From Candidatus Eiseniibacteriota bacterium (GTDB lineage Bacteria > Joyebacterota > Joyebacteria > Joyebacterales > Joyebacteraceae): 35,653 nt of DNA. Positions 9,396-29,093 of the stretch are shown in pieces. How positions within the stretch are numbered: position 1 is the first letter of the stretch; each line of letters opens with the position of its first letter. The stretch covers positions 1 to 35,653 of the forward strand of contig JBDRFG010000062.1 in NCBI GenBank assembly GCA_043819135.1. The letters run 5' to 3'. Position numbers and translations under genes: made by a program. Under the pieces are notes generated by a model. The model saw only the letters and a list, made by a program, of their open reading frames with translations, ran no database searches and was not told the origin of the DNA.

Positions 9396-10758
9396 CTCCG
9401 ATCACGACGTTCTGGATTCTGACGTGGGGCGCGCCGTCGCTGACGGGCAGCGGGAACTGACCTGACTTGCCGCATCCGCCCGGGCCGTCGTGGATGCCCA
9501 GATCGTCGCCGAGCATGTCGATGTCTTTGAGCGTCTTGAAGACGTTGCCGGTCAGCGTCACGTCGCGGACCCTCTCTGCCAGCTTGCCGTCGCGTATCAT
9601 GTGCCCGTCGGCCGCCGTGAACGTGAACATCTCGCCGTTGGTCTGCCCGCCGGAGGCCATGATGGCGTAGACGCCGAGCTTCGTGCCGGCGATCATGTCG
9701 TCGAAGCTCGAGTCGCCCGCCTCGATGCACGTGTTGCGCATGCGACACACCGGAGCGTAGCGGTAGTCGATGGACCGGGCGCTGCCGGTAGGACGCTCGC
9801 CCATCTTACCGGCGGTCTCGCGCGAGTGGAGCCTGCCCGTGAGCTTGCCGTCCGTGATGAGGTAGGTCTTCTCCGTCGGCACGCCCTCGTCGTCGTAGAC
9901 GACGTGGCCGCGCAGCCCCTTGTCGAGCCCCGTGTCGTAGACATTGAGGAACGGCCGTCCGAACTCACGCCCGAGCACCATCACCTTCTGCAGGTTCTCG
10001 TCCTCGTAGACGTTGTCGCCCTCCGACAGGTGGCCGAACGCCTCGTGAATGAAGACGCCGGCGAGCCGCGGGTCGAGCACGACCGTGTACTCTCCGCCCT
10101 TCACCTTCGGTGCGTCCAGCTTGGCGACCGCGATCTCGCAGCTCTTCCTGATGTCGTCCTCGAGCCCCAGCGCAACGCCGAAGTCGTCCGTCGAACCGAA
10201 CGATACCCAGTGCGACTGGGAATCACCGTCGCGGCTGGCCATCGCGGCGATGGCTCCGCCCATGTCCACGCGCTCCTGGTAGATGAGGCTGCCCTCGCTG
10301 CTTCCGAACCAGCGCCGGTGGCAGCGGTCGTAGAAACGCACGGTGGAGCTCACGATGAGATCGTGAGCCGCAAGCACCTGCTCGGTGTAGGCGCGGAAGA
10401 TCCCGACCTTCTTCTCCAGAGGGACCGCTCGAGGGTCGCTCTCGAGGTCTAGCGGTACGTCGGCACGGACGGGGTCCACTTCGGCTAATTGGCTCTTGTC
10501 CTTGCCCACGAGCCTCGCCTGGTCTATGGCGTGCTGCGCGAACTCATCGATACGGTCGACGCTGTTGAAGGACGCGAACCCCCACCCGCCCTTGTTGAGC
10601 GCGCGGACGTTGCCTCCGAAATCGACCTTCTTCCCGAGGTCGGTCAGCTGCGGCCCCGTGAACTGGACCCTCGACTCCTCGGTCTCCTCGATGTGCACCT
10701 CGAGATAGTCGCACTGCGAGGAGAACTTCTTGAGCGTTTGTTCCAGCCGGTCCTTCAT
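9388..10758 (-). CDS. tldD: TldD family metalloprotease
   Basis: HEAFGH metal-binding motif, YDDEG, RMRNT, CGKSGQ..PVSDGAPH. Confidence 0.92.
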   Translation of the reverse strand: MKDRLEQTLKKFSSQCDYLEVHIEETEESRVQFTGPQLTDLGKKVDFGGNVRALNKGGWGFASFNSVDRIDEFAQHAIDQARLVGKDKSQLAEVDPVRADVPLDLESDPRAVPLEKKVGIFRAYTEQVLAAHDLIVSSTVRFYDRCHRRWFGSSEGSLIYQERVDMGGAIAAMASRDGDSQSHWVSFGSTDDFGVALGLEDDIRKSCEIAVAKLDAPKVKGGEYTVVLDPRLAGVFIHEAFGHLSEGDNVYEDENLQKVMVLGREFGRPFLNVYDTGLDKGLRGHVVYDDEGVPTEKTYLITDGKLTGRLHSRETAGKMGERPTGSARSIDYRYAPVCRMRNTCIEAGDSSFDDMIAGTKLGVYAIMASGGQTNGEMFTFTAADGHMIRDGKLAERVRDVTLTGNVFKTLKDIDMLGDDLGIHDGPGGCGKSGQFPLPVSDGAPHVRIQNVVIGGE

Positions 10759-15545: not shown

Positions 15546-16889
15546 CTACAGGTCTATTGCGTATTCCTTGATCTTGTTCTGGAGGGTCCTTCTGGAGATG
15601 CCGAGGACCTTCGCCGCGTGGGTCCTGTTCCCCTCGGTCTGCTTGAGGGTCTTTATGATGGTGTCGCGCTCGACCTCGCGCATGGTCTTGCCGCCAGTGA
15701 GTGACGTCCCCTCCCCGCCGACGGACGAGGCCTGGACCTTGGCCGGAAGGTGCTCGGGGAATATCGTCTCGCCGCGGGAGAGCACGACAGCTCGCTGCAC
15801 GGCGTTCTCGAGCTCGCGGACGTTGCCGGGCCACTCGTAGTTCATCGCCATGCGCACCGTGCTCGGCGACATCTTCTTGGGCTTGCCGCCCGACGGCGCG
15901 TGGGCCCGCAGGAAGTGGTCTATGAGAAGCGGAATATCACCCACCCTGTCTCGCAGCGGTGGCAGCGTAATGGTGACGACGTTCAGCCGGAAGTAGAGGT
16001 CCTCGCGGAAGCTCCCCGCTGCTATCTCGGCTTCGAGGTCCTTGTTGGTAGCCGCGATGACGCGCACGTCAACCTTGACGTCCGTGGACCCACCGACGCG
16101 CTGCACGATATGATCCTGTAGAAACCGGAGGAGCTTCGCCTGGAGTGCCTCGGACATGTCGCCGATCTCATCCAGGAAGACGGTCCCTCCGTCGGCCGTC
16201 TCGAACTTCCCTCGCTTCTGATGAACGGCGCCGGTGAAGGCGCCCTTCTCGTGACCGAAGAGCTCACTCTCGAGGAGTCCCTCCGGGATCGCCGAGCAGT
16301 TGACCGCGACGAGGGGCTTCCTCACGCGACCGCTCGAACTGTGGATCTCCCGGGCTATCATATCCTTGCCGGTACCGCTCTCGCCGAGGAGGAGGACCGA
16401 CGCGTCACTGTCGGCCACTCGGTGGGCGATGTCGAGCACGTCACGAAGCGCGTCGCTCGCCCCGATGATGCCCGTCGCGAGCGCGAACTCGTCGCGTTCG
16501 TCCGCGTGCGACTCGGGCGTGCCCTCCATCCAGCGGCCGATGACCCGCCGCACCTCGTCGATGTCTATCGGCTTCGTGATGTAATCGAAAGCCCCGAGCT
16601 TCATGGCGGAGACCGCGGTCTCAACGGAGGCGTACGCCGTCATCATGATGACGCCGGTCTCGGGGCTTAAGCTCTTGATGCGTTCGAGCGCCTCGATGCC
16701 GTCCATGCCGGGCATGCGCAGGTCCATGACGACGAGATCGTGGAAGCCGGCCCGGAGTCGTTCCACCGCCGCCTCGCCGTCGCCGGCGGTGTCGACCGCG
16801 TGGCCGTCGCTCTCGAGGACGGCGCGCAGGAGTTCCAGCACGCTGGACTGGTCGTCGACGACGAGGATGTTGAGTGGCGCTGCCTCCAT
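15546..16889 (-). CDS. Sigma54-dependent response regulator (NtrC/ZraR family)
   Basis: Receiver (VVDD, DLRMP, KP), Walker A GESGTGKD, ESELFGHEKGAFTGA, FLDEIG, WPGNVRELEN, Fis HTH. Confidence 0.95.
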   Translation of the reverse strand: MEAAPLNILVVDDQSSVLELLRAVLESDGHAVDTAGDGEAAVERLRAGFHDLVVMDLRMPGMDGIEALERIKSLSPETGVIMMTAYASVETAVSAMKLGAFDYITKPIDIDEVRRVIGRWMEGTPESHADERDEFALATGIIGASDALRDVLDIAHRVADSDASVLLLGESGTGKDMIAREIHSSSGRVRKPLVAVNCSAIPEGLLESELFGHEKGAFTGAVHQKRGKFETADGGTVFLDEIGDMSEALQAKLLRFLQDHIVQRVGGSTDVKVDVRVIAATNKDLEAEIAAGSFREDLYFRLNVVTITLPPLRDRVGDIPLLIDHFLRAHAPSGGKPKKMSPSTVRMAMNYEWPGNVRELENAVQRAVVLSRGETIFPEHLPAKVQASSVGGEGTSLTGGKTMREVERDTIIKTLKQTEGNRTHAAKVLGISRRTLQNKIKEYAIDL

Positions 16890-16908
16890 CTACTCTCCTC
16901 TGGTCGCT

Positions 16909-18837
16909 CTAGAGCGGCGTCCCTCCACCATTCTCCCTCGACTTCGTCTCTCCGGCGACGGGGAGCACGAGCGAGAACGTCGTGCCCTGGCCCTGCGAGC
17001 TTCTGACCCCGACCCGCCCGCCGTTCTGCTCGACGACGCGAGACACGACGGTGAGACCGAGGCCGGTCCCCCTTGGCTTGGTGGTGTAGAACGGCTCGAA
17101 CAACTTGCCGACCTCTTCTTCGGACATCCCCTCGCCCGTGTCGGTGACGCCGATGGTCACCGTGGGCGGGCCGTCCGTGGAGCCGCTGACAGATGTCTCG
17201 ATGGTAAGTGTTCCGCCCTCGCCCATGGCCTCGATGGCGTTCAAGAGCACGTTCAGGAGCGCCTGCCGGATCTGCATCGGGTCGACGAGCACGTCCGGAA
17301 GGCCCTCACCGAGCTTCATCTCGATGCTGACGCGTTTGAACTGGGCGTCCTCAGACACGAGCGCCAGCGCCTCCTCGATCATCGTGCCGGAAGATATCTG
17401 CGTCCTGTCGGGCGCCACCGGACGCGCGAAGTCCAGGAGTTCCTGGACGACGCGGTCCAGCCGCTCGACCTCTTCTATCATAATGTCCGAGTAGCGCTCC
17501 TCCTCGGAGCCGGGCTCGAACTTCGTCCGGAAGAACTGCGCGAACCCCTTGAGCGAGCTCAGAGGATTGCGGACCTCGTGCGCGACACCGGCAGCCAGTC
17601 TGCCGAGCGACGCCAGATGGCGTTCCCTCTCGACGGCTTCCTTGAGCTCCTCGATCTCGCGCAGGTCCTGGAAGAGCAGCACGGTCCCGGCACGCTCGCC
17701 CTCTTCGTCCCACAGGGACGAGGCGGAGAGAGCGACGGGCACGGACCCGGCACGACCGACCACGCGCGTCTCGGTCTCGAGAACCTCCCGCTCGCCGGTC
17801 AGTACGCGGTCGACCTCCGCCCGGTCCGCGTCGTGGTCGACGCGCATGACGTCGTTCACGTCCGCCCCGTCGACGACCGCGGCCCCCAACCCGAGGATCG
17901 CCCTCGCGCCGGCGTTCACGGTCACGACGTGCCCGGTAGCATCGAGAGAGACGAGTCCGCTCGTCATGCTTTCGATGATGTTGCTCGTGTAGGAACGCAT
18001 GTTCTCGAGGGCGGTCCGCGTGGACCTGTGGGTCGCTATTATGAAGAGGAAGTAGATGGCCGTGCCGCCCACGAGAAGCAGGACACCCGCGAGCATGAGC
18101 GTGTAGTTTCTGGAGGAATGGAAGGCGGCCTCAAGTTCGGTGGCGTCGAGGCCCACTACGGCGGTGATCGGAACGGGAGCGTTGGGATCGACCGGACGGC
18201 CGAGGAGTTCCTCGAGCCTCGCCCGGACCAGCTCGGGGTCGGCCGGAGTGACCAGAGCAAGGCGCCCAGGCGGCCCCATCCTGCTGCGGCCCAACTGCCG
18301 GAGCCTGTGGTCGGCAGCCGCCGGAGGAGGCAGGTCGATCGAGACGCGATACTCGTAGACGCGGCGCCCGCCGGTCTCGACGATCCTGGTCCCGACCGCT
18401 ATGTCGACCCGCACGCCCGTCGGCCCGTGTCCCCCGGGAAGCCCGATGCGTCGGACGCCTCTGGGGTCACCACGGACGTCCGTTCTGACGTCGGCCTCAG
18501 GCAGTAGCCGGCCTACCTCCACACTGTCGCTATGTACGACAATCCTGCCGTCGCTATCCAGCAGGGCCAGGTAGGCGATGCCGGGGTGGGTCGATGACAC
18601 CTCCTCGAAGAAGGTGTTGATGCGGGTGGGGCGCCACGCGGGAGACATGAGCTCGGCCCTGAGGTCTGCCCGCGTGAACGAGAGGATCCCCCGGGCCTGA
18701 TACCAGAGGATCTCGGACAGCTGCTCCCGCCCTCGACCGATGTCGCGGTACGAGATGAAAGCCACGGTGATCGCCAAGAGGACGATGCCGATGACGATGG
18801 ATGTGATGGGTAGATAGGCCACTCGCTTCGAACGCAT
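16909..18837 (-). CDS. Sensor histidine kinase with PAS domain (ZraS/AtoS-like)
   Basis: Two TM segments, PAS, AHEVRNPL H-box, NVLLNA, DTGEG, FEPFYTTK, GTGLGL. Confidence 0.93.
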   Translation of the reverse strand: MRSKRVAYLPITSIVIGIVLLAITVAFISYRDIGRGREQLSEILWYQARGILSFTRADLRAELMSPAWRPTRINTFFEEVSSTHPGIAYLALLDSDGRIVVHSDSVEVGRLLPEADVRTDVRGDPRGVRRIGLPGGHGPTGVRVDIAVGTRIVETGGRRVYEYRVSIDLPPPAAADHRLRQLGRSRMGPPGRLALVTPADPELVRARLEELLGRPVDPNAPVPITAVVGLDATELEAAFHSSRNYTLMLAGVLLLVGGTAIYFLFIIATHRSTRTALENMRSYTSNIIESMTSGLVSLDATGHVVTVNAGARAILGLGAAVVDGADVNDVMRVDHDADRAEVDRVLTGEREVLETETRVVGRAGSVPVALSASSLWDEEGERAGTVLLFQDLREIEELKEAVERERHLASLGRLAAGVAHEVRNPLSSLKGFAQFFRTKFEPGSEEERYSDIMIEEVERLDRVVQELLDFARPVAPDRTQISSGTMIEEALALVSEDAQFKRVSIEMKLGEGLPDVLVDPMQIRQALLNVLLNAIEAMGEGGTLTIETSVSGSTDGPPTVTIGVTDTGEGMSEEEVGKLFEPFYTTKPRGTGLGLTVVSRVVEQNGGRVGVRSSQGQGTTFSLVLPVAGETKSRENGGGTPL

Positions 18838-18973: not shown

Positions 18974-19810
18974 TCAGTAGTGGCCGAGCGTCCCCGAACT
19001 GCGCGCACGCCGGCAGCCCCACTCGAGCACGGCGAGCCCCGCGGCGAGCGATACTCCCGCGGCCACCGCGAGGAAGAGCAGAGAACCGGCAGACCCGGTC
19101 GCGGCGGCGCACCCGGCCCCGTAGCGCGCAACGGCGAGTGCGTGTGTGGTCGGCAACGCTCCCGCCCCCGCCTGGAGCCAGCGGGGCAGCATGTCGACCG
19201 GGAAGTAGACGCCACCGAGGAGCCCCGCGGCGCCGCTCACCGCCCACGAGATCGGTTCTCCCTCCTTCGAGACCATGATGACGCCGGCGGATGCCAGCCC
19301 GGCCCCGCACATGACGAGCAGGTACAACCCCAGAGCCGCGACCAGCGACGGCGAGAGTCGGAGGTTCAGACCGATGAGAGCAGCGGCGCCTGCCATCAGG
19401 AGCGCCCCGCCCAGGACCGTGATGGCGAGTTCGCCGGCGCCCGCCAAGAGCACCAGCACCGGTGTCGGCAAGCGGGTCGTCAGGAGCAGCTCCAGCGTCC
19501 CCTGGAGCTGTTCGCGCCGGACGGCGGAGCGGAACGAATGCAGCCCCGAACTCGCGAGCGAGTGCACGAAGATGCCCACGACGGCGAACGACGAATAACT
19601 CATCCCGTAGTGCTCGATGAATCCGGAGCCGGCGCACGACACGACACGACCCACGAACGAGAACGTCACGAGCGACAACACGAGCGATGCCAGACCGAGC
19701 GCGAGCTTGGCCCGGTAGCTCGCGTAGGTGGCGAGTTCCCGCCTGAAGAAAGCAAGAGCGGAGGTGAGCACGAGCGATACCGCGCCGGTCTGTCGAGGTT
19801 CCGTCCTCAC
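18974..19810 (-). CDS. ABC-2 type exporter permease
   Basis: About 6 TM segments, REQLQGTLELLL, GGVYFPVDMLPRWLQ..LPTTH; GTG start overlaps the ATPase stop (GTGA). Confidence 0.85.
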   Translation of the reverse strand: MRTEPRQTGAVSLVLTSALAFFRRELATYASYRAKLALGLASLVLSLVTFSFVGRVVSCAGSGFIEHYGMSYSSFAVVGIFVHSLASSGLHSFRSAVRREQLQGTLELLLTTRLPTPVLVLLAGAGELAITVLGGALLMAGAAALIGLNLRLSPSLVAALGLYLLVMCGAGLASAGVIMVSKEGEPISWAVSGAAGLLGGVYFPVDMLPRWLQAGAGALPTTHALAVARYGAGCAAATGSAGSLLFLAVAAGVSLAAGLAVLEWGCRRARSSGTLGHY

Positions 19811-20472
19811 GCTCCGACCCTCCCCCCGCCCAGCTCGATCACGAGGTCGCACCGTGAGGCAACCGCAGGGTCGTGCGTAGCCAGCACCACGGACCGTCCC
19901 GAGCGCGCGCGGCGCTTGAGCGCTCCCCACAAGAGCTCGCGCGCCCTTTCGTCCACCGACGCGAACGGCTCGTCAAGAACGAGCAAACGGGGCTCCCCGA
20001 GGCATGCCCTGGCCACGGACAGCCTGGCCAGCGCCCCGCGCGACAGGCTTCTGGCGGGCCTGGCGAGAAACCTCTCCAGGTCCAGCTCGGCGGCGAGCCG
20101 CATGATCTCCGCGGCGATCCGACCGGAGCTGATGCCCTTGAGCCGAGCGAAGAAGGCAAGGTTGTGCCTGGCCGACAGGCGCCAGTAGAACGACCGGCCC
20201 GTGCCCAACGACACTCCAATGGAGCGGCGCACCGCGGACTGCTCGGTCACGACGTCGCTACCGAAGACGAACCCTCGCCCTGACGACGGCCTGACCAGCG
20301 TCGCGATGATCCTGAGGGCGGTCGTCTTGCCCGCCCCGTTCGGCCCGACCAGAGCGGCGAGCTGTCCCTCCCCCACGGAGGCCGAGACCCCCGCGAGCGC
20401 CGGCACCTCTCGCCCCTTGTGCACGTAGTTCTTGCACACGCGCTCCAGCCTGACCGCCGGCGTTTCGTTCAT
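19807..20472 (-). CDS. ABC exporter ATP-binding protein
   Basis: Walker A GPNGAGKT, signature LSRG, Walker B LLVLDEP, H-loop ATH; start MNETP. Confidence 0.9.
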   Translation of the reverse strand: MNETPAVRLERVCKNYVHKGREVPALAGVSASVGEGQLAALVGPNGAGKTTALRIIATLVRPSSGRGFVFGSDVVTEQSAVRRSIGVSLGTGRSFYWRLSARHNLAFFARLKGISSGRIAAEIMRLAAELDLERFLARPARSLSRGALARLSVARACLGEPRLLVLDEPFASVDERARELLWGALKRRARSGRSVVLATHDPAVASRCDLVIELGGGRVGA

Positions 20473-20488
20473 TGAGCCCCCGTACCAC

Positions 20489-22027
20489 TCATGGAGCACC
20501 CGGCGCGGATCCGCCATCCGCGGGCCCGGACGCGGACCCGGGAGACACCGCGAACGACCACGCGCTCACTCTGCCGCCCGCCGGGGCGACGCGAACCAGT
20601 TCCGGCTCGGGCGTCCCGACGAGGTCGCACGCGATGAGCCCCGCGGCGCCCGCGACGTTGTCGAATCCCGCGCGCGTCGAACCCGTCTCGCCGTCCAGCA
20701 GGTACACACCCTCGACGTCCCAGATCAGCAGGTCGAAGGTGGAGCCTCCCGCGGCGGCGACCGACAGGTTCCCCCCGGCGGCGGCCGGAGCTTCTCCCAT
20801 GTCACCAACGAGCAGGCATGGATCGTAGACGTTCTCGCGGGTCTCGAACCTCCACATGACGTCGCCCGACCCGGGGTCGCACGCGTACAGGAACCCGTCG
20901 CTGCACCCGAGGACCAGCTCGCTGCCGGGGCCCCCATCGAGTTCGACGGGGGTAAGGCAGTTCACGGGCTCTCCGGTCTCACGGAGCGCGTCTCTGATGA
21001 ACCTGGGGATCTTCGGGTTTGTAAGATGCGACTCGTGTGACTCGACCCCGAACTGCAGCCTGTCGAGCACTTCGCCGGTCCGCGCGTTCATCACAACGAC
21101 CGCGCCCGCGAAGCAACCGACGGCCAGCTCGGCGATGCCGTCACCGAGGAAGTCCGCAAGCACCGGCGTCGAACTGACCACGCCCTCCGGGTTGAGGCGC
21201 TCGCGCCTACCCAACCCTACTTCCCACGCGAGTTCACCTTCGCCAGAGAGACACAGCAGGTGGTTCCCGTTCTCGGCGACGAGGACCTCGTCCCGGCCGT
21301 CTCCGTCCACGTCCAGCGCGGACGGGTGAGTGAACCCACTCGCGAACGGCCCGCTGGCGGAGACCGCATCGCGAGACCATAGCTCGCGCAGGTCGTCACC
21401 GGCGAGAGCCGCCAGAACGTCGTCCCGCTTCTTCCCCGCGGTGTAGACGATGCCCGGACCGAAGCCGTCCGAACTCCCGCCGGCCGGCCGCTTGCACACG
21501 CGAGCGCAGACCAGATCACCAATGGTTCCAGCCAGAGTGGCTCCGAGCACGTGCTCTCCCGTCGCACCGTCGAGCACTGAGAGCTCGTCGCCACACGCCA
21601 CGACCACCTCGACCGTCCCGTCGCCGTTAAGATCCGCCGCTACCACGCACGAGCGCTGGGGGAAGGCGGCGCGCCAGAACACGTCCCCACTTGCGCCGTC
21701 GAGAACCACGACGCCGGACGGTTCGTTGCGTCGGCCTCCGTGCAGCAGGACCTCGTGTCGACCGTCGCCGTCGAGATCCGCGACCGTCCCGCTGAGCAGC
21801 ACCTGCCCCGGAAAGCTGACGCTGCGCTCCCACAAAACCTCGCGCGTGAACCCGGGGCCGGGCTCCGACGGCAGCACGAGGTCCGGCGTGCGTGCGTCCG
21901 CAGAAATCGAACGGGTCAGGTCGGCCGCTACCGCGTCCGCGCGCATCGGGCCGGGCGGGGCGGCGAGTATCACCGCCGCCACCGCCACCCATAGCCACGC
22001 CCGCAGCCTTCTTCTAGTAATCGACAA
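20489..22027 (-). CDS. Secreted FG-GAP/PQQ-like repeat beta-propeller protein
   Basis: Repeats DLDGDGRHE, DLNGDGTVE, DVDGDGRDE, DFLGDGIAE plus W-containing blade motifs; probable TTG start at 22027 gives a signal peptide (start uncertain). Confidence 0.75.
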   Translation of the reverse strand: MSITRRRLRAWLWVAVAAVILAAPPGPMRADAVAADLTRSISADARTPDLVLPSEPGPGFTREVLWERSVSFPGQVLLSGTVADLDGDGRHEVLLHGGRRNEPSGVVVLDGASGDVFWRAAFPQRSCVVAADLNGDGTVEVVVACGDELSVLDGATGEHVLGATLAGTIGDLVCARVCKRPAGGSSDGFGPGIVYTAGKKRDDVLAALAGDDLRELWSRDAVSASGPFASGFTHPSALDVDGDGRDEVLVAENGNHLLCLSGEGELAWEVGLGRRERLNPEGVVSSTPVLADFLGDGIAELAVGCFAGAVVVMNARTGEVLDRLQFGVESHESHLTNPKIPRFIRDALRETGEPVNCLTPVELDGGPGSELVLGCSDGFLYACDPGSGDVMWRFETRENVYDPCLLVGDMGEAPAAAGGNLSVAAAGGSTFDLLIWDVEGVYLLDGETGSTRAGFDNVAGAAGLIACDLVGTPEPELVRVAPAGGRVSAWSFAVSPGSASGPADGGSAPGAP

Positions 22028-22190
22028 GGCAGACGTCCCTGTTCGAGCAGTTCCCGAAGTCGAACGCGCACTCGTCGACTCCACCGCAGTTGCCCCAGTC
22101 GATGAAGATGTAGCACATCATCGATGCGGGGATTGCCCCCTCGGTCACCGAGGACAGGGAACTACCGTTGGCCATCCTGAGATGCTTCAT
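22014..22190 (-). CDS. RiPP (ranthipeptide-like) precursor peptide 2, 58 aa
   Basis: MKHLRMANGSSLSSVTEGAIPASMMCYIFIDWGNCGGVDECAFDFGNCSNRDVCLVDY; RBS AGGAGG; leader similar to precursor 1. Confidence 0.88.
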   Translation of the reverse strand: MKHLRMANGSSLSSVTEGAIPASMMCYIFIDWGNCGGVDECAFDFGNCSNRDVCLVDY

Positions 22191-22230: not shown

Positions 22231-22407
22231 CTACTGCGTGTCAATGATACAGCTGTCCGCGGTGACGCATCCGTTGTCCAGGTCGAACAACCAGCACACG
22301 TCGGCGTTCGGACATTGCGAGTAGTCGACGAGGCAGATGTCGCTCACTTCTCTCTGCGCCGCCGGCACCGAACGGACCAGCCCGTTCGCGACCTTCATGT
22401 GTCTCAT
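22231..22407 (-). CDS. RiPP (ranthipeptide-like) precursor peptide 1, 58 aa
   Basis: MRHMKVANGLVRSVPAAQREVSDICLVDYSQCPNADVCWLFDLDNGCVTADSCIIDTQ; RBS GGAGGTGA overlaps the radical SAM stop codon. Confidence 0.88.
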   Translation of the reverse strand: MRHMKVANGLVRSVPAAQREVSDICLVDYSQCPNADVCWLFDLDNGCVTADSCIIDTQ

Positions 22408-22411
22408 CCCA

Positions 22412-24964
22412 TCACCTCCCCTCACGCATGTTGACACCACCCAGTTCGTCCCTACGCGTCCCGCCCGATTCTCGCCCGGCGTCGAACTCGGGACGGACCG
22501 CTTGCCGCGCCGCCTCCGCGAGCCTCGCCCTGCTCTTTTTGGGAAGAGACACGTAGAGCCACATCGACAGCTCCAGTATCCGCTGCGTTACTCGACACCG
22601 AGGTCCCGTCGGCCCGGCGAACGTTCCCTCGGCGGATTCGACGTCGTGCAGGCACGCCCCGCCGCACAGGCCGAACGCCCAGCAATCTGCGCAGGCGGCG
22701 GACCGTCGCCCCAGCGCGCCAAGCAATCTGCCGACGGCGAAGCGGTCGAGCCCCCCGCCCACGTCGCCGACGGCGTATCGCGCGTCACCCGCGAACCGGT
22801 GACAGAGGTACAGACGACCGTCGTGGTCGACGGAGACGTAGCGGGCGCCGGCGCCACAGGGCGCGAGACGCTGTCGACCCAGCTCAAGAGCAAGCACCGG
22901 CTCGATGAAGCACCCCGCCGATGGACGACGCCCCGCGCGTATCGACTCGAGCTCCGCGCGGGCAAGCTCGTCCAGCTCCCCAACAAGCCTATCGGCGAAC
23001 TCGGTGGTCATAGGCGCGCCGCTCACCGGCGCCAGGTGGACGACCCCGAATCCGAGTCCCACGAGATGGCCGACCAAGTCCGTCAGTGCGACGGAGTCCT
23101 CGGTCACGGTCGCTCGCGCGCCCGGACGCATGCCCTCTGGAAGCCCCCGGAGGTTAGCGGCTATTCTCTCGTACGAACCACCGCCGTCCGGAAATGGCCT
23201 GTGAGCGTCGTGGGAGTTCGCCGGGCCGTCTATGCTCACGAGAATGCGGACCCCGACAGCGTGGAGCATCTCGGCCACGTCCGGTGTGAGAAGTGTGCCG
23301 TTCGTCGTCATGTGAAACGAGATGTCCACGCCTCGGGTCGCCGCGCGGCCGCGCGCGTACCGGGCCGTGCGTTCGATGAGACCGGGATTGAGCAGCGGCT
23401 CCCCACCGAAGAAGACGACGGAGACGCTCCTCTCCCCAAACGACTCGCTCAGCAGGAGGTCGATCGCCGCGCGGGCGACATCGTCAGACATCAGTCTCGA
23501 TGTGTGAGGCTCACGTCCCAGATAGCAGTAATCGCAGGAGAGATTGCATCCCCCGGAGACGTTGAGCGCGACCGACGCGATTCCGCTTAGGCTAGGCCCA
23601 TCCGCGCCGGACAGGTGGCGCTCATCCATCGTGAATTCGAGGTGTGCCCCATGACAGAGCAGAGCGTCGCGCCGGCCTCCGGTGAGCACGGAGATCTCGC
23701 CCAGCGCCTCACCAACAGGACCCGGACCGTGGTTCATGCGCAGCACGTCCAGCGCGGCGCTGGACTCTCCGGCCCGGAGCCACCTGATGACGTCCGAGGC
23801 CAGCCCATCTGCTTCGAAGAAGAGCCCCGACCGCGTGTCGAACACGAACACGTCGTCGTCGACCTGGAAATCGTGGAGCCCGTCGGCGGGAGCACGACCT
23901 CGCCCGGTCGTGTTCCCGTCCAAACGGTCAGGACCCGGATCGGGACTCGCCCCCGAGTCGGTTCGCGCATGCGACCCGGCTTCCCCGGCGCGCTCCACGA
24001 TCGCGAGCCGCCTCGACATGCGGCCGAGCACGAGTCGCGCCCTGTCCTGTGACCGCCGGAGGTGCGATTCGAGGATGGTGGCGCCAAGGAGCGCAGCCCC
24101 GGCGGCGCCCCGGTCGTATCGCGAGCACACCAGTTCCACGAGTTCGTCCAGCGCTCCCGACCGCGCACCGAGCCGCAGGAGTTCGCCCGCCCCGCACGCC
24201 TCGGCGGGTGTCGCCAGACCGCTCCTCGTGGCCATCAGCCACGCCGCCGCCGACCACCGTCGCGCCGACAGGTCAGGCTCCAGGTCTTCTATGTCATCTG
24301 CAAGCTGGTAGGCCGCGTGGTAGTCCTCGACTATCCGCTCAGCCCGGGCGAGCGTGTCGGGACGTCCGGCCAGGAGGGCCATGCCAGCCGCGGAGGCCTT
24401 GAGCGGCGACATCTTGCGTCCGAGTTTCGTGAGGGTTTCCGCAAGGGCCTCCTCCCCGACGGCGGACCCCCCGTCGTCGGACATGAGCACGCGCGACTCC
24501 CACTCCAGGCTCGTGAAGAACTCGTCGAGGTATCGTTCGAGGTGAATCCAGAACGCGGACCCCGTCGGGAACAGACGCGAGTACTCGAGCACGAACCGAA
24601 GGAACGAGTCATCGGAGAGACGGGCGGCCGCGGGAGTGGGGCTCTCGTCGCCGTCGAGCCATCGGTCCTGCTGGAGGAAGTGCGCGGCCCCGAAGGCATT
24701 CCCGAGCGCCATGGTCCTCGCCGCCGCCAGGCAGTCGGCGAACGGGTGCGCGCCGGCCAGTGCGAACGGAAGGAGTATGACTATGTTGCCGGGTGTGATG
24801 CCGGGGTCGGCGCATCGTGACGGAAGGCAGGAGACATCGGGCCGCGCGGCCGGACGGCCAGCGCACGGCTCCGCGAGGTCCGCGCTCTGCCCACGGGCCT
24901 CCTCGAAGCGCCGCGCAACCAGCCTGCACTCCGCTCCGGGATCGTAGAAACCTATTCTGGACAA
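22412..24964 (-). CDS. Fusion maturase: isoprenoid-synthase-fold domain + RRE + radical SAM/SPASM
   Basis: QQDRWLD, RKMSPLK, YQLADDIED in the N-terminal helical domain; RRE-like HDFQVDDDVFVFDTRSGLFFE; CNLSCDYC, FFGGEPLL, TTNGTLL, VSIDG; SPASM CGAG..LYLCHRF..CADCWAFGLCGGAC..C. Start uncertain (TTG 24964; frame open to 25015). Confidence 0.88.
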   Translation of the reverse strand: MSRIGFYDPGAECRLVARRFEEARGQSADLAEPCAGRPAARPDVSCLPSRCADPGITPGNIVILLPFALAGAHPFADCLAAARTMALGNAFGAAHFLQQDRWLDGDESPTPAAARLSDDSFLRFVLEYSRLFPTGSAFWIHLERYLDEFFTSLEWESRVLMSDDGGSAVGEEALAETLTKLGRKMSPLKASAAGMALLAGRPDTLARAERIVEDYHAAYQLADDIEDLEPDLSARRWSAAAWLMATRSGLATPAEACGAGELLRLGARSGALDELVELVCSRYDRGAAGAALLGATILESHLRRSQDRARLVLGRMSRRLAIVERAGEAGSHARTDSGASPDPGPDRLDGNTTGRGRAPADGLHDFQVDDDVFVFDTRSGLFFEADGLASDVIRWLRAGESSAALDVLRMNHGPGPVGEALGEISVLTGGRRDALLCHGAHLEFTMDERHLSGADGPSLSGIASVALNVSGGCNLSCDYCYLGREPHTSRLMSDDVARAAIDLLLSESFGERSVSVVFFGGEPLLNPGLIERTARYARGRAATRGVDISFHMTTNGTLLTPDVAEMLHAVGVRILVSIDGPANSHDAHRPFPDGGGSYERIAANLRGLPEGMRPGARATVTEDSVALTDLVGHLVGLGFGVVHLAPVSGAPMTTEFADRLVGELDELARAELESIRAGRRPSAGCFIEPVLALELGRQRLAPCGAGARYVSVDHDGRLYLCHRFAGDARYAVGDVGGGLDRFAVGRLLGALGRRSAACADCWAFGLCGGACLHDVESAEGTFAGPTGPRCRVTQRILELSMWLYVSLPKKSRARLAEAARQAVRPEFDAGRESGGTRRDELGGVNMREGR

Positions 24965-25021
24965 GTCGAGCGTTCCACCGGGGAATCGGGAGCGGTGCAT
25001 CAGGCGATCGGGCAAATGAGA

Positions 25022-25049
25022 AGGGCGAACCCCGGGTGGAGTCCGCCCT
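25022..25049 (-). terminator. Terminator/attenuator-like hairpin upstream of the maturase
   Basis: Minus strand AGGGCGGACTCC-ACCC-GGGGTTCGCCCT (12 bp with G-U pairs that form only on this strand) followed by TCTCATTT. Confidence 0.5.
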
Positions 25050-25321
25050 GCAGATCATGGTTCCAGGATGAGGTACGGCCGGCAGGTCTGGTGCGGGAGA
25101 GCGTCCGAGATAGCCTGCCGGCCGTCGTGGGCTGACTCCATCCCCGCGGAGGTGAGAGCAAGTTACTGACCAAGCTAACTGCCTGGGATGGAGCTATGAC
25201 GAAGAGCCGTGTCGTAGGTGCGTCCTGCTTCTGGATGCTTCGGCTCTTCCGGGGGTAACCTTTCACACTGTCTATATCGATTACAGCCGCGGCGCCTCTC
25301 CAGCATGCAGCTGTCTTGATC

Positions 25322-25396
25322 TCAGCCGAGGAACGGCGATGCAATTCCGATGAGCAGGATCACGACCATTACCTTTGTCTTCGCCGCACTCGGCAT
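25322..25396 (-). CDS. Putative small hydrophobic peptide, 24 aa (MPSAAKTKVMVVILLIGIASPFLG)
   Basis: ATG preceded by GAGGTTGAGGAA; basic N-terminus then hydrophobic stretch; too short to appear in the ORF track. Confidence 0.4.
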   Translation of the reverse strand: MPSAAKTKVMVVILLIGIASPFLG

Positions 25397-25559
25397 TTCC
25401 TCAACCTCTATGTGATCTCCGCGGGGACTTCCGCGGTGGTCTCATAAACGGAAGGAGAAGCAGACCAAAGAGCGACCGGACTCGCCCCCCCTGCGTATCT
25501 AACACCCTGGCCGCCTCTCCCTCCGTATTCCGTTGTCAAGTCATCCACATACTCTTAGG

Positions 25560-25575
25560 GCATCAAGTGTGCCAA
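25560..25575 (-). promoter_or_regulatory. Putative sigma54 promoter pointing into the RiPP cluster
   Basis: Minus strand TTGGCACACTTGATGC: TGGCAC -24 box and GG-N10-GC spacing; -12 box ATGC instead of TTGC. Confidence 0.65.
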
Positions 25576-25766
25576 GTGTGCCAGAAATGGCCGCTCAATC
25601 GGAAAGGACGTCGCCTCTCTAACCACTGATACCCAAATCACTTACGACCGCTCGACGACGCGTGCCAGACGTTACTGACTCCGCTTCAGGACACGATTCG
25701 GACGCCCTTTCAGATATCTCGTAGGACCGGGACTGTAACCCCCTGACTCTCAAACAGTTGCGGCAC

Positions 25767-26000: not shown

Positions 26001-29000
26001 CTACCCGATCCCGTACTTCCTCATCTTGGCATGGAGGCCCGGCCGCGAGAGCCCCAGGAGGTCCGCAGCGGCCTGCTTGTTCCAGCCGGTCCTGCCGAGA
26101 GCCTCAAGGATGCGGCTCTTCTCCAGCGCCTCCACCTCGTCCTTCAGTGAACGCCTCAGCGCCTCGTCCGAGCGGAGCCCGGTCTGGTACTGGTCGCGGA
26201 GCTCGGGACGAACCTTGTCGATACCGATGACATCATTGTCCGCCGCAAGCGCCACTCCCCTGCGCACGTCGTTCTCGAGTTCGCGGACGTTGTTGCCGCG
26301 CCAGTCGTGCTTCGTGAACAGCTCGCGCACCTCGCGGCTGAACCCGGGGATCGACTTCCCCTCGCGCTCGCAGTAGAGCTTGAGGAAGTGCTCCATAAGG
26401 AGCGGGATGTCGTCCGGACGGTCCCTGAGCGGCGGGATCTCGATGACGACCGCGCAGAGCCTGTAGAAGAGGTCGCGCCTGAACCGGCCTTCCTTGACCT
26501 CCTCGGCCAGGTCCTTGTTGGTCGCGGAGATGACGCGCGCGTCGCTGGTCCGGGTCACGTTCTCCCCGACTCTGCGATACTCGCCGTTCTGCAGGAACCG
26601 GAGCAGCTTCACCTGCAGCTGGGGGCTCATCTCGCCGATCTCATCCAAGAAGAGCGTCCCCTGGTCGGCAACCTGCACCAGGCCCTCGCGGTCACGGTCT
26701 GCGTCGGTGAACGAGCCCTTGACGTGGCCGAACAGCTCGCTCTCCTGCAAATGCTGCGCGATCGCGCCCGCGTTCAAAGCGACGAACTTGCCGGTCTTGC
26801 TCCGCCCGCCCTGATGGATGGCGCGAGCGATGATGTCCTTGCCGACGCCCGACTCGCCGCGGACGACGATGGGCACCCGGCTATCCCTTAGCCGGTCGAC
26901 GCTCGCGAGGATCCGCTGCATCTCGGGGTTCCTGGTGATGAACCCTGATGACTCGGGTGATGTCCCGAGCTCTTCGGCGAGACGGCCGTTCGCTTCCCAC
27001 GCGCTCGATTCGCCCAGTCGCGAGCAGGCAACGCCCAGCATCCTTGCGGCGGCGCCGATGAACTCGATGTCGCTCTGGGTGAAGGGTGTCGAACGCTCGC
27101 TAACGAAGCGGTCCGCATACAGGACATATGAGCGGTCGCGGCGGAACCCGACCTTGGCCGGGATGAGCGCGACGGCGCCTACGTCCTGCGGCGCGCCCCC
27201 GTCGGAGGAACGCCCGTCGCTGATCACGAGAGGTCTGGCGTGCCCGCGCGCGGCCAGAGTGGTGCGGACGAACCGTGTGGCCTCGACAACGCCCCTGCCG
27301 GACCGGTCCACGGAAGTGGCAATGACCGGCGCCGCGCCCTCGGTGAGCGAGAAGAGCAGCAGCCTGTCGGCGACCAGCACGTCGGCGATCTCTTCGGCGA
27401 ACTGATGGAGATCCTCCGCGCGCGGCTCCGCGGTCTCGAGGAACCTGTATCCCTCTGCTATGGTCGAGTACCTCGCCTGCAGCGACACCGCCGCGTCGGC
27501 GAGCCCCGCGTCCAGCTCTCTGAGTATTGCGTCGACCTCGGCCAGGCCCTGCGTATCGTGCCCGACCTCAAACTTCAGCCGCGACCTCTCGAGCCATGTT
27601 CTGGCGCGGTCGGGCTGGCCGCCCCTCTGAAGCGCCTTCCCGCGCTCGAGCTGGCAGCGCGCGACCCAGCCGCCGGCCCCGACCCTGGTGAAGATGGCCT
27701 CTGCCGCCGAAAAGCGCGCCTCGATCCTGTCGAGGGGAAGCTGACCCTGCGGCGCCGAGTCCCTGAGGCCCACACCGTCGGCCATGGCGGTCCTGGCGAG
27801 TTCCATCGACTCGCCTATCCTGCGCAGCATCTCCTCGGCCCGCGTGATCAGCACCTCGGCGGCTGTCGCCTCACCCTTCGCGTAGCAGACGCTGGCCAGC
27901 ACGCGCAGGGTGGCGCCCTCCTCGAGCTTGTCGCCGATCTCACGAGTGAGCTTGATGGCCTCCGAGCAGTCGCGTTCGGACTCCTCGAGCCTGCCGAGTC
28001 TGAACAGAACGTCGGCGCGGCGGCGAAGCACCTCGCCCACGACGTCACTGTTCGAAGACAGCCTGTAGGCGCATCCCAGAGCCCTGTTCAGGGTTCCGAG
28101 CGCGTCCTCGTTCCTGTCCTGGTCCATTTCGAGGTGGCCGATGAACTCGAGCGCCAGCGCCTCGGCCCGGAGGTATCCGCGCTCCTGACTCGTATGAAGC
28201 GCCTCGTCGAAGAGGCCGCGCGCCCTGCCCCACTCGCGCCGCTCGCGGCACACGTTGCCGAGCGCCGTCGAGGCCGCGACGAAACCTCTGGTCGCGCCGA
28301 TTCTCGAATAGATGTCACGCGCCTCGTTCAGATGGCCCTCGGACTCGGCCCAGCGCGACAGCTTGTAGAGGATGATGCCGAGGTTGGTCAGCCTGTCGGC
28401 TATCGCGGCCGAACGTCCGAGCCGTCTGTCGATCTCGAGCGCATCTTCCAGGTGCTCGAGCGCGCCGTTCAGATCGCCCATGCGCTTCGCGAGAATGCCG
28501 AGGTTGTTGTAGGCCGAGGCGAGCCCGGCCTCGTCGCCCAGACGCTTCTGCGAGACGAGGTAGTCGGTGAAGTAGTCGCGAGCCGCGGTGATGTTGCCGA
28601 GCTCTGCGTTGGCTATGCCGAGGGCCTTGCCGGCCTCGGCGAGCAGAGGATTGTCGGGAGACATCCTCAGGGTTTCGTACGCCTTCTGAGCGGCTCGGAG
28701 CGCCTCGTCGTAGCGGCCGCTCTCGATCTCGACCCTCGCGAGGACGACGTTCGCCTCGGCCCAGACCGAGGTCGCGTTCTCATCGAGTTCGAGGTCGTCA
28801 AGCTTGGCGCAGTAGTTACGCGCGCTCCTGTAGTCGCCAAGACCCAGGTGGCACCTCGCGATGCGCACGAAGAGCCCTGCGGCTTCCATGTCGGAGAGCT
28901 CAGCTCCGAGTTCCCCTCCACCTGCCTGAACGAAGTAGCCAAGCGCGTCCGAGTAGCTGTCGGACCCGAGATAGACGTCTCCGAGTCGGATGGCCGTCAG

Positions 29001-29093
29001 CGCCGCATCCCTTGCGCTGCGCGATTCCATCGCCTTTCGGAACGCCTCCAGCATCTCGCGTTCCCGGCTATTGTCCGGTCGCTGACGTGCCAA
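26001..29093 (-). CDS. TPR-repeat sigma54-dependent transcriptional activator (TPR - GAF-like - AAA+ - Fis HTH)
   Basis: TPR motifs (ASAYNNLGILAKRMGD, LTNLGIILY), GESGVGKD, ESELFGHVKGSFTDA, LFLDEIGE, RRDLFYRL, NVRELEN, C-terminal HTH; no receiver domain. Confidence 0.9.
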   Translation of the reverse strand: MARQRPDNSREREMLEAFRKAMESRSARDAALTAIRLGDVYLGSDSYSDALGYFVQAGGGELGAELSDMEAAGLFVRIARCHLGLGDYRSARNYCAKLDDLELDENATSVWAEANVVLARVEIESGRYDEALRAAQKAYETLRMSPDNPLLAEAGKALGIANAELGNITAARDYFTDYLVSQKRLGDEAGLASAYNNLGILAKRMGDLNGALEHLEDALEIDRRLGRSAAIADRLTNLGIILYKLSRWAESEGHLNEARDIYSRIGATRGFVAASTALGNVCRERREWGRARGLFDEALHTSQERGYLRAEALALEFIGHLEMDQDRNEDALGTLNRALGCAYRLSSNSDVVGEVLRRRADVLFRLGRLEESERDCSEAIKLTREIGDKLEEGATLRVLASVCYAKGEATAAEVLITRAEEMLRRIGESMELARTAMADGVGLRDSAPQGQLPLDRIEARFSAAEAIFTRVGAGGWVARCQLERGKALQRGGQPDRARTWLERSRLKFEVGHDTQGLAEVDAILRELDAGLADAAVSLQARYSTIAEGYRFLETAEPRAEDLHQFAEEIADVLVADRLLLFSLTEGAAPVIATSVDRSGRGVVEATRFVRTTLAARGHARPLVISDGRSSDGGAPQDVGAVALIPAKVGFRRDRSYVLYADRFVSERSTPFTQSDIEFIGAAARMLGVACSRLGESSAWEANGRLAEELGTSPESSGFITRNPEMQRILASVDRLRDSRVPIVVRGESGVGKDIIARAIHQGGRSKTGKFVALNAGAIAQHLQESELFGHVKGSFTDADRDREGLVQVADQGTLFLDEIGEMSPQLQVKLLRFLQNGEYRRVGENVTRTSDARVISATNKDLAEEVKEGRFRRDLFYRLCAVVIEIPPLRDRPDDIPLLMEHFLKLYCEREGKSIPGFSREVRELFTKHDWRGNNVRELENDVRRGVALAADNDVIGIDKVRPELRDQYQTGLRSDEALRRSLKDEVEALEKSRILEALGRTGWNKQAAADLLGLSRPGLHAKMRKYGIG

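Follow-up and report, generated by a model that had tools for sequence, protein, structure and literature searches.

The window, which is the whole stretch of DNA that was analysed, comprises 35,653 nucleotides from Candidatus Eiseniibacteriota bacterium (GenBank assembly GCA_043819135.1, contig JBDRFG010000062.1, positions 1 to 35,653), and all features described here lie on its minus strand. The element under study is a fusion gene at 22412-24964, in which a prenyltransferase-like domain is followed by a linker, a recognition element (RRE) of the kind found with peptides that ribosomes make and that are modified after translation (RiPPs), a radical SAM domain and a SPASM domain. Two precursor peptide genes lie directly downstream, within a cassette of regulatory, export and two-component genes. 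An earlier note on this DNA had described the product as a radical SAM/SPASM maturase fused to an N-terminal ComQ-like domain of the class I isoprenoid-synthase fold, and had proposed that it both forms thioethers and prenylates its precursors.

The gene is one open frame without stop or frameshift, as the earlier note had stated. From TTG 24964 it encodes 850 aa, which is the length of database protein P0002 and agrees with the N-termini of homologues (P0003 begins with MSRTGFFDPG). Alternative starts are ATG 25000 and TTG 25015, and the frame is uninterrupted over 22412-25015, with 867 codons from the latter TTG; residue numbers of the enzyme refer to this 867-codon reading. The prenyltransferase-like domain, assigned by an AlphaFold2 model, Foldseek and VIA-align, covers residues ~21-345 (23981-24955). 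It holds a first Asp-rich region HFLQQDRWLD (H112-D121, 24653-24682), a GRKMSPLK motif (G199-K206, 24398-24421) and a second Asp-rich motif YQLADDIEDLEPD (Y236-D248, 24272-24310). The linker AGEAGSHARTDSGASPDPGPDRLDGNTTGRGRAPADG (residues ~346-378, 23882-23980) is rich in Gly, Pro and Asp, and is the only part that varies freely in length and sequence among the 23 aligned homologues (alignment columns 366-441). The RRE, radical SAM and SPASM parts occupy residues ~379-867 (22415-23881), with CxxxCxxC at 23525-23548 and the invariant C-terminal cysteines between 22595 and 22858. The motif positions of the earlier note were reproduced: FLQQDRWLDGD at residues 113-123 (24647-24679), RKMSPLK at 200-206, YQLADDIEDL at 236-245 (24281-24310) and CNLSCDYC at 490-497, as was its Gly/Pro/Asp linker.

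With the N-terminal part as query, 37 homologous clusters were found, all with a radical SAM annotation in Pfam and all but two of 748-872 aa. Loci from 26 species-level genomes were recovered, the named ones all belonging to metagenome-assembled genomes (MAGs) of Candidatus Eisenbacteria. The N-domain motifs and CxxxCxxC share one stop-free frame in 24 of the 26 loci; in L026 the contig stops before the radical SAM part. An assembly artefact as the origin of the fusion was rejected, because 24 independent assemblies carry it in a single frame. The fusion of the N-domain to an RRE/radical SAM/SPASM enzyme, which the earlier note had proposed to check by counting genomes with the same arrangement, is established as real and conserved. 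A survey of 31 genomes of the same phylum (one family, 8 genera) placed the N-domain in 30 of them, including all 20 of high quality; the sole genome without it is 65% complete. Every genome with the domain has one copy except G023, where two copies occur on contigs C89 and C56 (E 3.4e-90 and 3.4e-87). At L004:3886-6469 (= G005) the N-domain frame ends after 433 codons and the radical SAM part resumes in another frame; the gene may be truly split here, or the break may come from a frameshift or from an error in sequencing.

The N-domain model was computed from an alignment of 24 N-domains taken from the window and from genome DNA. It has a predicted local distance difference test score (pLDDT) of 87.9, a predicted template modelling score (pTM) of 0.85 and 13 helices over ~325 residues, in keeping with the ~320 helical residues that the earlier note had described. 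Among the matches listed by Foldseek against the PDB, all are polyprenyl, farnesyl diphosphate (FPP), geranylgeranyl diphosphate (GGPP), octaprenyl or solanesyl synthases, with TM scores of 0.41-0.64 and a probability of 1.00. A VIA-align structural scan of 48,161 chains placed the GGPP synthase 5jfq at Z 22.3, with a root-mean-square deviation (rmsd) of 3.2 A for 271 residues. Synthases of the GGPP, heptaprenyl and solanesyl types scored Z 20-22, with rmsd ~3.0-3.3 A over ~270 residues, and two non-elongating prenyltransferases, Ord1 (9v4g, Z 19.9) and MoeN5 (Z 19.6), grouped with them; lower scores, Z 12-14, were obtained for squalene synthase and terpene cyclases. Sequence comparison hardly detects the domain: single-sequence phmmer of the N-domain against the PDB reached only E 0.11-1.1, the family profile gave five matches, all trans-prenyl synthases (E 0.005-0.45), and the wider family profile reached E 1.2e-5 for the best trans-isoprenyl-diphosphate-synthase (trans-IDS) chain and E 0.43 for Ord1. 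The second Asp-rich motif is the sole stretch that HMMER aligns to solved trans-prenyl synthases. On the structural models the assignment of the N-domain to the trans-IDS fold is considered settled, and the class I isoprenoid-synthase fold of the earlier note is thereby narrowed to the trans-prenyl-diphosphate-synthase type.

No change was seen at eight polar residues of the N-domain (D117, D121, K206, Q237, D240, D241, D244 and D248), either in the 23 full-length homologues or in the 24 N-domains derived from genomes, at domain identities of 40-77%; further invariant residues are P83, R100, N106, H112, F113, D135, W156, R161, Y162, H233, Y236 and R253. The first motif of the window protein is DRWLD, i.e. 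D-R-x-x-D, and is therefore degenerate, as had been noted. Relatives hold a canonical motif at the same place in seven loci (QDDxxD in L009, L017, L020-L023 and L025); the other loci read QD[E/G/H/R]xxD. The ancestral motif was probably a normal DDxxD with only its second position drifting. By sequence reading, and with positional equivalence presumed, the isopentenyl diphosphate (IPP) site signatures GGKRxRP and RRG are missing from the window protein; LLPFAL stands ~30-35 residues before the first motif, no RRG follows, and LLPFAL and DRWLDGDESPTP lie at distances that match the synthase signatures. The genome encodes two canonical prenyl-diphosphate synthases (L028, L029) that do show these signatures, a synthase of the genome reading FGGGKRLRP and DDDDTRRG; one of the two adjoins a dxs-like gene named from sequence reading. 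In an hhalign alignment too weak to place the active site (13-14% probability), GRKMSPLK is set opposite GKTARPL / RKTGALF of these FPP/GGPP synthases.

The conserved residues can be compared with those of characterised peptide prenyltransferases of this fold. In StheQ, which belongs to the ComQ family, the first and last residues of D-E-x-x-D (D85/D89) hold Mg2+, and K174 and Q212 touch the diphosphate, Q212 standing three residues before a degenerate second Asp-rich motif (pseudo-SARM). PalQ has D89/D93, Q197 and D200/D204, requires Mg2+ or Mn2+, and accepts Trp alone, other electron-rich residues being rejected. A 2026 review states that every characterised trans-IDS-like peptide prenyltransferase targets Trp, that a Gln and the first Asp of the second motif sit near the indole NH, and that these enzymes are homodimers. 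In the window protein Q237 lies three residues ahead of D240, and the likeness of Q237 and K206 to StheQ Q212 and K174, or to PalQ Q197, is one of spacing. The N-domain thus appears to keep the residues used by its Trp-prenylating relatives at matching spacings, structural equivalence being presumed. A complex prediction for the N-domain with precursor B returned a score of 0.00, which counts neither for nor against binding.

The C-terminal half matches Pfam PF04055 (Radical_SAM) with E 3.7e-19. The highest NCBIfam scores were obtained with PapB (NF047865, 248.7 bits) and QhpD (TIGR03906, 238.8 bits), followed by a nif11-type maturase and the SCIFF maturase (TIGR03974, 177.3 bits), all of them under the curated cut-offs (340 for PapB, 453 for QhpD, 425 for SCIFF). 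The QhpD model aligned over residues 380-827 and the SCIFF model likewise from residue 380, so the RRE is included. The closest solved chain is 5wgg, which we take to be CteB; the alignment is collinear (E 6.8e-40, query 2-441 against chain 8-448). C490, C494 and C497 are invariant, as are seven further cysteines (C720, C738, C775, C778, C784, C788 and C807). The C-terminal half therefore looks like an ordinary member of the thioether-forming RRE/radical SAM/SPASM enzymes, outside any curated family, and a thioether function is well supported by analogy.

Both precursor genes lie directly downstream of the fusion gene and have good ribosome-binding sites. Precursor A (22231-22407, 58 aa, MRHMKVANGLVRSVPAAQREVSDICLVDYSQCPNADVCWLFDLDNGCVTADSCIIDTQ) has the leader motif MRHMKVANG and a core with five Cys, each followed by an Asp after 3-4 residues; precursor B (22014-22190, 58 aa, MKHLRMANGSSLSSVTEGAIPASMMCYIFIDWGNCGGVDECAFDFGNCSNRDVCLVDY) has the leader motif MKHLRMANG and a core with five Cys, each followed by an Asp after 3-5 residues. 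W39 and W32 are the only Trp of A and B, respectively, in agreement with the earlier note. The same two precursor types follow the fusion gene wherever the contig is readable (48 peptides from 23 loci); a third paralogue is present in three loci, and the contig of L003 ends after type A. A core Trp is present in all 48 peptides and stands at the position typical of the family in 47, and the single Trp of each precursor, offered by the earlier note as the candidate acceptor, proved invariant across the clade. Among 14 aligned type A peptides the invariant residues are C25, D28, Y29, C32, D36, C38, W39, D42, C47, D51, C53 and D56, with Y29 and W39 the only invariant core residues beyond the five Cys and five Asp. 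Among 20 aligned type B peptides they are C26, Y27, I28, D31, W32, G33, C35, D39, C41, D44, C48, D52, C54, L55, D57 and Y58. PapB links Cys to Asp or Glu, according to two papers (PMC10739248, PMC9413430), and the repeated Cys-x(n)-Asp of the cores appears to be the pattern that PapB bridges. Trp would then be among the very few invariant core residues that the thioethers leave unexplained.

When the neighbours in the window were used as tblastn queries, the same gene order was found throughout the 26 loci, within the limits of each contig, and in all four extended genomes of other genera: TPR/sigma-54 activator, ~1 kb of intergenic DNA, fusion gene, precursors, beta-propeller, ABC ATPase, ABC-2 permease, kinase and NtrC-type regulator. 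The first of these, upstream of the operon (26001-29093), combines TPR, a sigma-54 activator domain and a Fis-type helix-turn-helix by Pfam. No other protein of the cassette is as conserved: its identity is 67-96% in the loci that extend to it (25 of 26), compared with 41-77% for the fusion protein; the contig of L014 starts too near the fusion gene to include it. This activator has no receiver domain. The protein at 20489-22084 is an FG-GAP/PQQ-like beta-propeller (Pfam FG-GAP_3, PQQ_2) with a twin-arginine-like N-terminus (TRRRLRAW); its start codon is uncertain because the listed open reading frame (ORF) overlaps precursor B. It is syntenic in 21 of 26 loci, the remaining five contigs ending sooner. 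An ABC transporter follows (18974-20517), composed of an ATPase (19807-20517) and an ABC-2 permease (18974-19930), assigned by Pfam and NCBIfam and likewise syntenic. The two-component system (15546-18837) consists of a sensor kinase (16909-18837), with two transmembrane segments around ~215 aa that are presumed extracytoplasmic and with PAS, HisKA and HATPase domains, and an NtrC-type sigma-54 response regulator (15546-16889). The kinase stands behind the permease in 17 loci, and both kinase and regulator are syntenic in the four extended genomes. A TldD/PmbA-type metallopeptidase pair is found at 8040-10758, ~5 kb past the cassette. Pairs of this type process some RiPP leaders; as a candidate leader peptidase the pair was dropped, lying outside the cassette.

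Between the activator gene and the fusion gene, a sigma-54-type promoter-like element TGGCACACTTGATGC (TGGCAC-N5-ATGC) was located at 25560-25574 by pattern match and alignment. With seven matches in the window against 4.9 expected, the loose sigma-54 pattern carries little weight by itself; in all six aligned loci, however, this element keeps its TGGCAC and its downstream TGC. The leader of ~490 nt that follows (25060-25545) is 70-92% identical by blastn in all 26 loci. In 14 aligned loci it contains invariant runs of 20-30 nucleotides, e.g. GGGGGGCGAGTCCGGTCGCTCT, in genomes whose fusion proteins are down to ~41% identical to that of the window. RNAalifold folds its 5' end into a nested hairpin of 17 pairs, two of them with compensatory changes, and no Rfam match was found in the window at gathering thresholds, nor in 24900-25700 at E ≤1. 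The conserved leader may be a structured regulatory RNA. It also contains a 24-codon ORF (25322-25396, MPSAAKTKVMVVILLIGIASPFLG) that would encode one hydrophobic helix and has GAGG upstream; substitutions across the 14 loci fall mainly at third codon positions, and the ORF may thus encode a genuine membrane protein of small size, or else a leader peptide with a regulatory role.

A wider family was collected with a hidden Markov model of the 24-N-domain alignment, searched against 1.84 billion representatives, which returned 1260 proteins at E ≤0.001 and 342 at ≤1e-10. Among the best 150 of the 1260, 114 are stand-alone proteins of <450 aa, mostly ~300-340; of the long ones, 18 have CxxxCxxC (17 also the SPASM-type cysteines), 12 have the SPASM-type cysteines only and 6 have neither. 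The motifs LPFWL, QDxxxD, K-x-APLK and QLxDDxxDWxxDL are kept across 40 family members. In a Pfam sample, P0056, P0063, P0066, P0068, P0091 and P0182 have a squalene-hopene-cyclase-like fusion partner, which stands ahead of the domain or behind it, and P0056 unites cyclase-like, prenyltransferase-like and SPASM parts. Neighbours in the ESM Atlas are 'hypothetical' clusters of several phyla and one labelled 'class 1 isoprenoid biosynthesis enzyme family'. RRE/SPASM fusions without CxxxCxxC are represented by P0055, P0056, P0057, P0058, P0060, P0062, P0063, P0067, P0072, P0082 and P0111, P0062 bearing the label of a SPASM domain-containing protein from a MAG of Candidatus Thorarchaeota; these could possibly form a non-radical, SPASM-only maturase lineage.

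A metagenome locus search for P0054 gave 43 pattern matches and no relative. The search for P0187 gave six loci, three of which contain the full gene at 100% identity and represent one cluster. In this cluster (L036:444-9767; three identical copies on metagenome contigs, n=1) a stand-alone prenyltransferase-like gene is preceded by two PapB/SCIFF/QhpD-like radical SAM genes and followed by an Os1348-family precursor of the NHLP clan, a geranylgeranyl-reductase-family gene (163.2 bits, cut-off 158.8), M16 and M50 peptidases and a MacB-type permease. The cluster supports a partnership of the domain with thioether maturases and a link to isoprenoids.

Among known systems, the window domain shares the all-alpha trans-IDS fold with the Trp prenyltransferases ComQ/StheQ, PalQ, the P domain of ChrPC, and Ord1, which acts on free Trp. 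Compared with published descriptions of StheQ and PalQ, the window domain keeps the first and last Asp of the first motif and, judged by spacing, appears to keep a Lys and a Gln that stands three residues ahead of the second motif. As in those systems, the enzyme lies beside a precursor with a conserved Trp, and the account of PalQ also places a histidine kinase in the gene set; the cassette layout recalls the PalP-PalX-PalQ set as described there. The ComQ likeness drawn in the earlier note holds as a comparison of mechanism, the key residues of trans-IDS-like peptide Trp prenyltransferases being apparently kept. It does not extend to the second motif: the work on StheQ gives the ComQ family a pseudo-SARM, whereas the window domain has a full DDxxD. 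Sequence membership of the ComQ/PalQ class was not detected (no NCBIfam match; Ord1 at E 0.43). Fusion to an RRE/radical SAM/SPASM enzyme is not described for ComQ/PalQ-type enzymes in the papers covered, and the candidate Trp here is internal, inside or beside a presumed thioether ring, which sets it apart from ComQ/PalQ-type substrates. With PapB (freyrasin) and CteB (SCIFF) the maturase half shares the RRE, CxxxCxxC, seven C-terminal SPASM-type cysteines and substrates with repeated Cys-x(2-4)-Asp. It differs in scoring below the curated cut-offs and in its extra N-terminal domain of ~345 residues, and the precursors differ in their mixed Cys-Asp spacing (i+3, i+4, i+5) and in the leader M-K-H-L-R-x-A-N-G.

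Fusions of a prenyltransferase with a terpene cyclase, of the ChrPC type, were reportedly described by Hubrich et al. in Chem in 2024. By a review's account of ChrPC, a prenyltransferase domain is joined there, as here, to a second RiPP tailoring domain, and relatives of the window domain carry the squalene-hopene-cyclase-like fusions given above; the partner in ChrPC is a cyclase, whereas in the window it is a radical SAM thioether maturase. With ComQXPA of Bacillus the cassette has in common a prenyltransferase-type enzyme, a Trp precursor, a sensor kinase and a response regulator in one conserved set. Unlike ComQXPA, the window has a kinase with two transmembrane segments, a presumed periplasmic domain and PAS, and a regulator that is an NtrC-type sigma-54 activator. 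A beta-propeller, an ABC exporter and a further sigma-54 activator come in addition, the peptide is putatively thioether-bridged, and signalling is a presumed role. In the literature covered, outside of which lay the primary ChrPC paper and a further 2026 review, no description of a prenyltransferase-radical SAM fusion or of a prenylated ranthipeptide was found.

Taken together, the fusion protein is read as an enzyme with two activities, whose products would be peptides with a prenylated Trp and five thioether bridges; it works in a ComQXPA-like cassette with sigma-54, ABC-exporter and two-component genes, and a probability of about one half is given to this reading. Between the catalytic domains lies a single RRE, which would bind the leader of each precursor. 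The C-terminal PapB/CteB/QhpD-type half would form five Cys-to-Asp thioether bridges in each downstream precursor, as judged from family resemblance and the substrate pattern. The N-domain would bind a prenyl diphosphate (C10-C20) through Mg2+ at D117/D121, ionise it and move the prenyl group onto the one invariant core Trp, W39 in A and W32 in B; the two canonical prenyl-diphosphate synthases of the genome are counted in its favour as a donor supply. Prenyl transfer to Trp is considered the likeliest function of this domain, with roughly even odds. The lipidated polycyclic peptides would probably be exported by the adjacent ABC-2 transporter.

Several observations weigh against this reading. 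The Arg at the second position of the first motif is an unusual replacement. PF00348 (polyprenyl synthetase) matches the N-domain at 12.1-12.4 bits (E ~0.1), on the second motif alone and below the gathering threshold of 27, and 5 of 14 family members reach E ≤10; the NCBIfam scan of the N-domain alone gave no match, and the hhalign comparison with the genome's own FPP/GGPP synthases covers ~50 columns (the K motif and the second motif). Conservation of the motifs cannot simply be mapped onto catalysis, because PalQ D200A/D204A retained activity. The cores of the precursors are conserved overall (mean column identity 60-74%) and Tyr is invariant too, so the invariant Trp is weaker evidence than it looks. 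The L036 precursor ends in the core CCYTCGGGCTLG, which has Tyr and Cys and no Trp; Trp is therefore no universal acceptor in the wider family. Finally, no obvious leader peptidase was seen in the cassette.

The acceptor and the activity of the N-domain are the points on which other explanations turn. An active prenyltransferase could modify a residue other than Trp, such as a Tyr (Y29 in A; Y27 or Y58 in B), a carboxylate, Ser/Thr or the new N-terminus exposed once the leader is gone. Both precursor families keep Tyr as strictly as Trp, and the stand-alone homologue in L036 accompanies a core with Tyr and Cys. This is nevertheless thought unlikely: the characterised peptide-acting enzymes of the fold all target Trp according to the 2026 review, PalQ is reported to have rejected other electron-rich residues, and the Gln and the first SARM Asp, tied in these papers to indole recognition, are invariant here. 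It is equally improbable that the N-domain is catalytically dead and only helps the radical SAM enzyme, as a module for dimerisation, as a scaffold or by binding the hydrophobic core. The degenerate first motif of most members (DRxxD, DExxD, DGxxD, DHxxD), the homodimeric state given for trans-IDS-like prenyltransferases in the same review, and the persistence of 12 of the 36 long representatives without radical SAM cysteines, by which domain decay does occur in the family, all fit such a role. The eight polar residues at the two metal/diphosphate motifs would then hardly be expected to stay invariant among proteins 40-77% identical in the domain, and the metal of StheQ is held by the first and last residues of the first motif alone, both of which are kept.

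Two further explanations are given less weight. In a system like that which matures quinohemoprotein amine dehydrogenase (Qhp), the exported beta-propeller would receive the bridged peptides as small subunits or ligands, with Trp used for a cofactor or for packing; such a role could coexist with prenylation. In the Qhp system itself, the beta-propeller is QhpB, thioethers of Cys with Asp/Glu and a quinone formed from Trp are found in QhpC, and the bridged subunit is moved by an ABC exporter. The radical SAM/SPASM enzyme, the small Cys/Asp/Trp peptide, the twin-arginine-type beta-propeller and the ABC exporter of the window recall this set, QhpD is the second-best NCBIfam match, and a near-universal, single-copy cassette is unusual for a dispensable natural product. 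A wholesale Qhp equivalence remains quite unlikely in view of the QhpD score of 238.8 against a cut-off of 453 bits, a propeller without a match to Qhp families at E ≤0.1, and a window in which no QhpG-type monooxygenase, heme subunit, QhpE-type protease or other Qhp family member was detected. Least probable is an N-domain that acts on small molecules, as a prenyl-diphosphate or terpene synthase coupling a lipid or terpene to the peptide pathway without modifying the peptide. Elongating synthases are its closest solved folds and weak Terpene_syn_C_2 matches occur in P0061, P0063 and P0074, but the GGKRxRP and RRG signatures are missing, the genome already has two canonical synthases, a covalent link ties the domain to a peptide maturase with an RRE, and precursors always lie next to it.

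If the bifunctional Trp-prenylating and thioether-forming enzyme is accepted, its product may be a signal that the producing cell itself senses, as with ComQXPA, which is possible because the cassette holds a presumed periplasm-sensing kinase, an NtrC-type regulator, a second sigma-54 activator and a sigma-54-like promoter. A more far-reaching scheme, for now rather doubtful, is a ComQXPA-like self-signalling circuit shared by the whole lineage. Its pheromone would be a new type of RiPP with five Cys-Asp thioether rings and a prenylated Trp, made by a single fused enzyme whose RRE is shared by prenyltransferase and radical SAM maturase; it would be exported by the ABC-2 pump, sensed by the kinase through its periplasmic domain and fed back via sigma-54 onto the structured leader RNA and promoter. 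Occurrence in 30 of 31 genomes, together with two sigma-54 regulators and the two-component wiring, speaks for a part in the physiology of the cell, for example in signalling or in the envelope, and not for an accessory antibiotic.

To our knowledge, ComQ was the only known peptide prenyltransferase of the isoprenoid-synthase fold until a few more were reported in 2023-2026. Ranthipeptide maturases are under development as tools for peptide macrocyclisation. If the proposed function is correct, prenylated ranthipeptides would constitute a RiPP class of hybrid kind, the substrates being short and strongly conserved, and the enzyme would be a compact catalyst for lipidated, multiply bridged peptides. 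The window is an entry point for annotating the large unnamed family of 1260 representatives, mostly 'hypothetical', and, should the reading hold, it would provide one of the first functional handles on Eisenbacteria.

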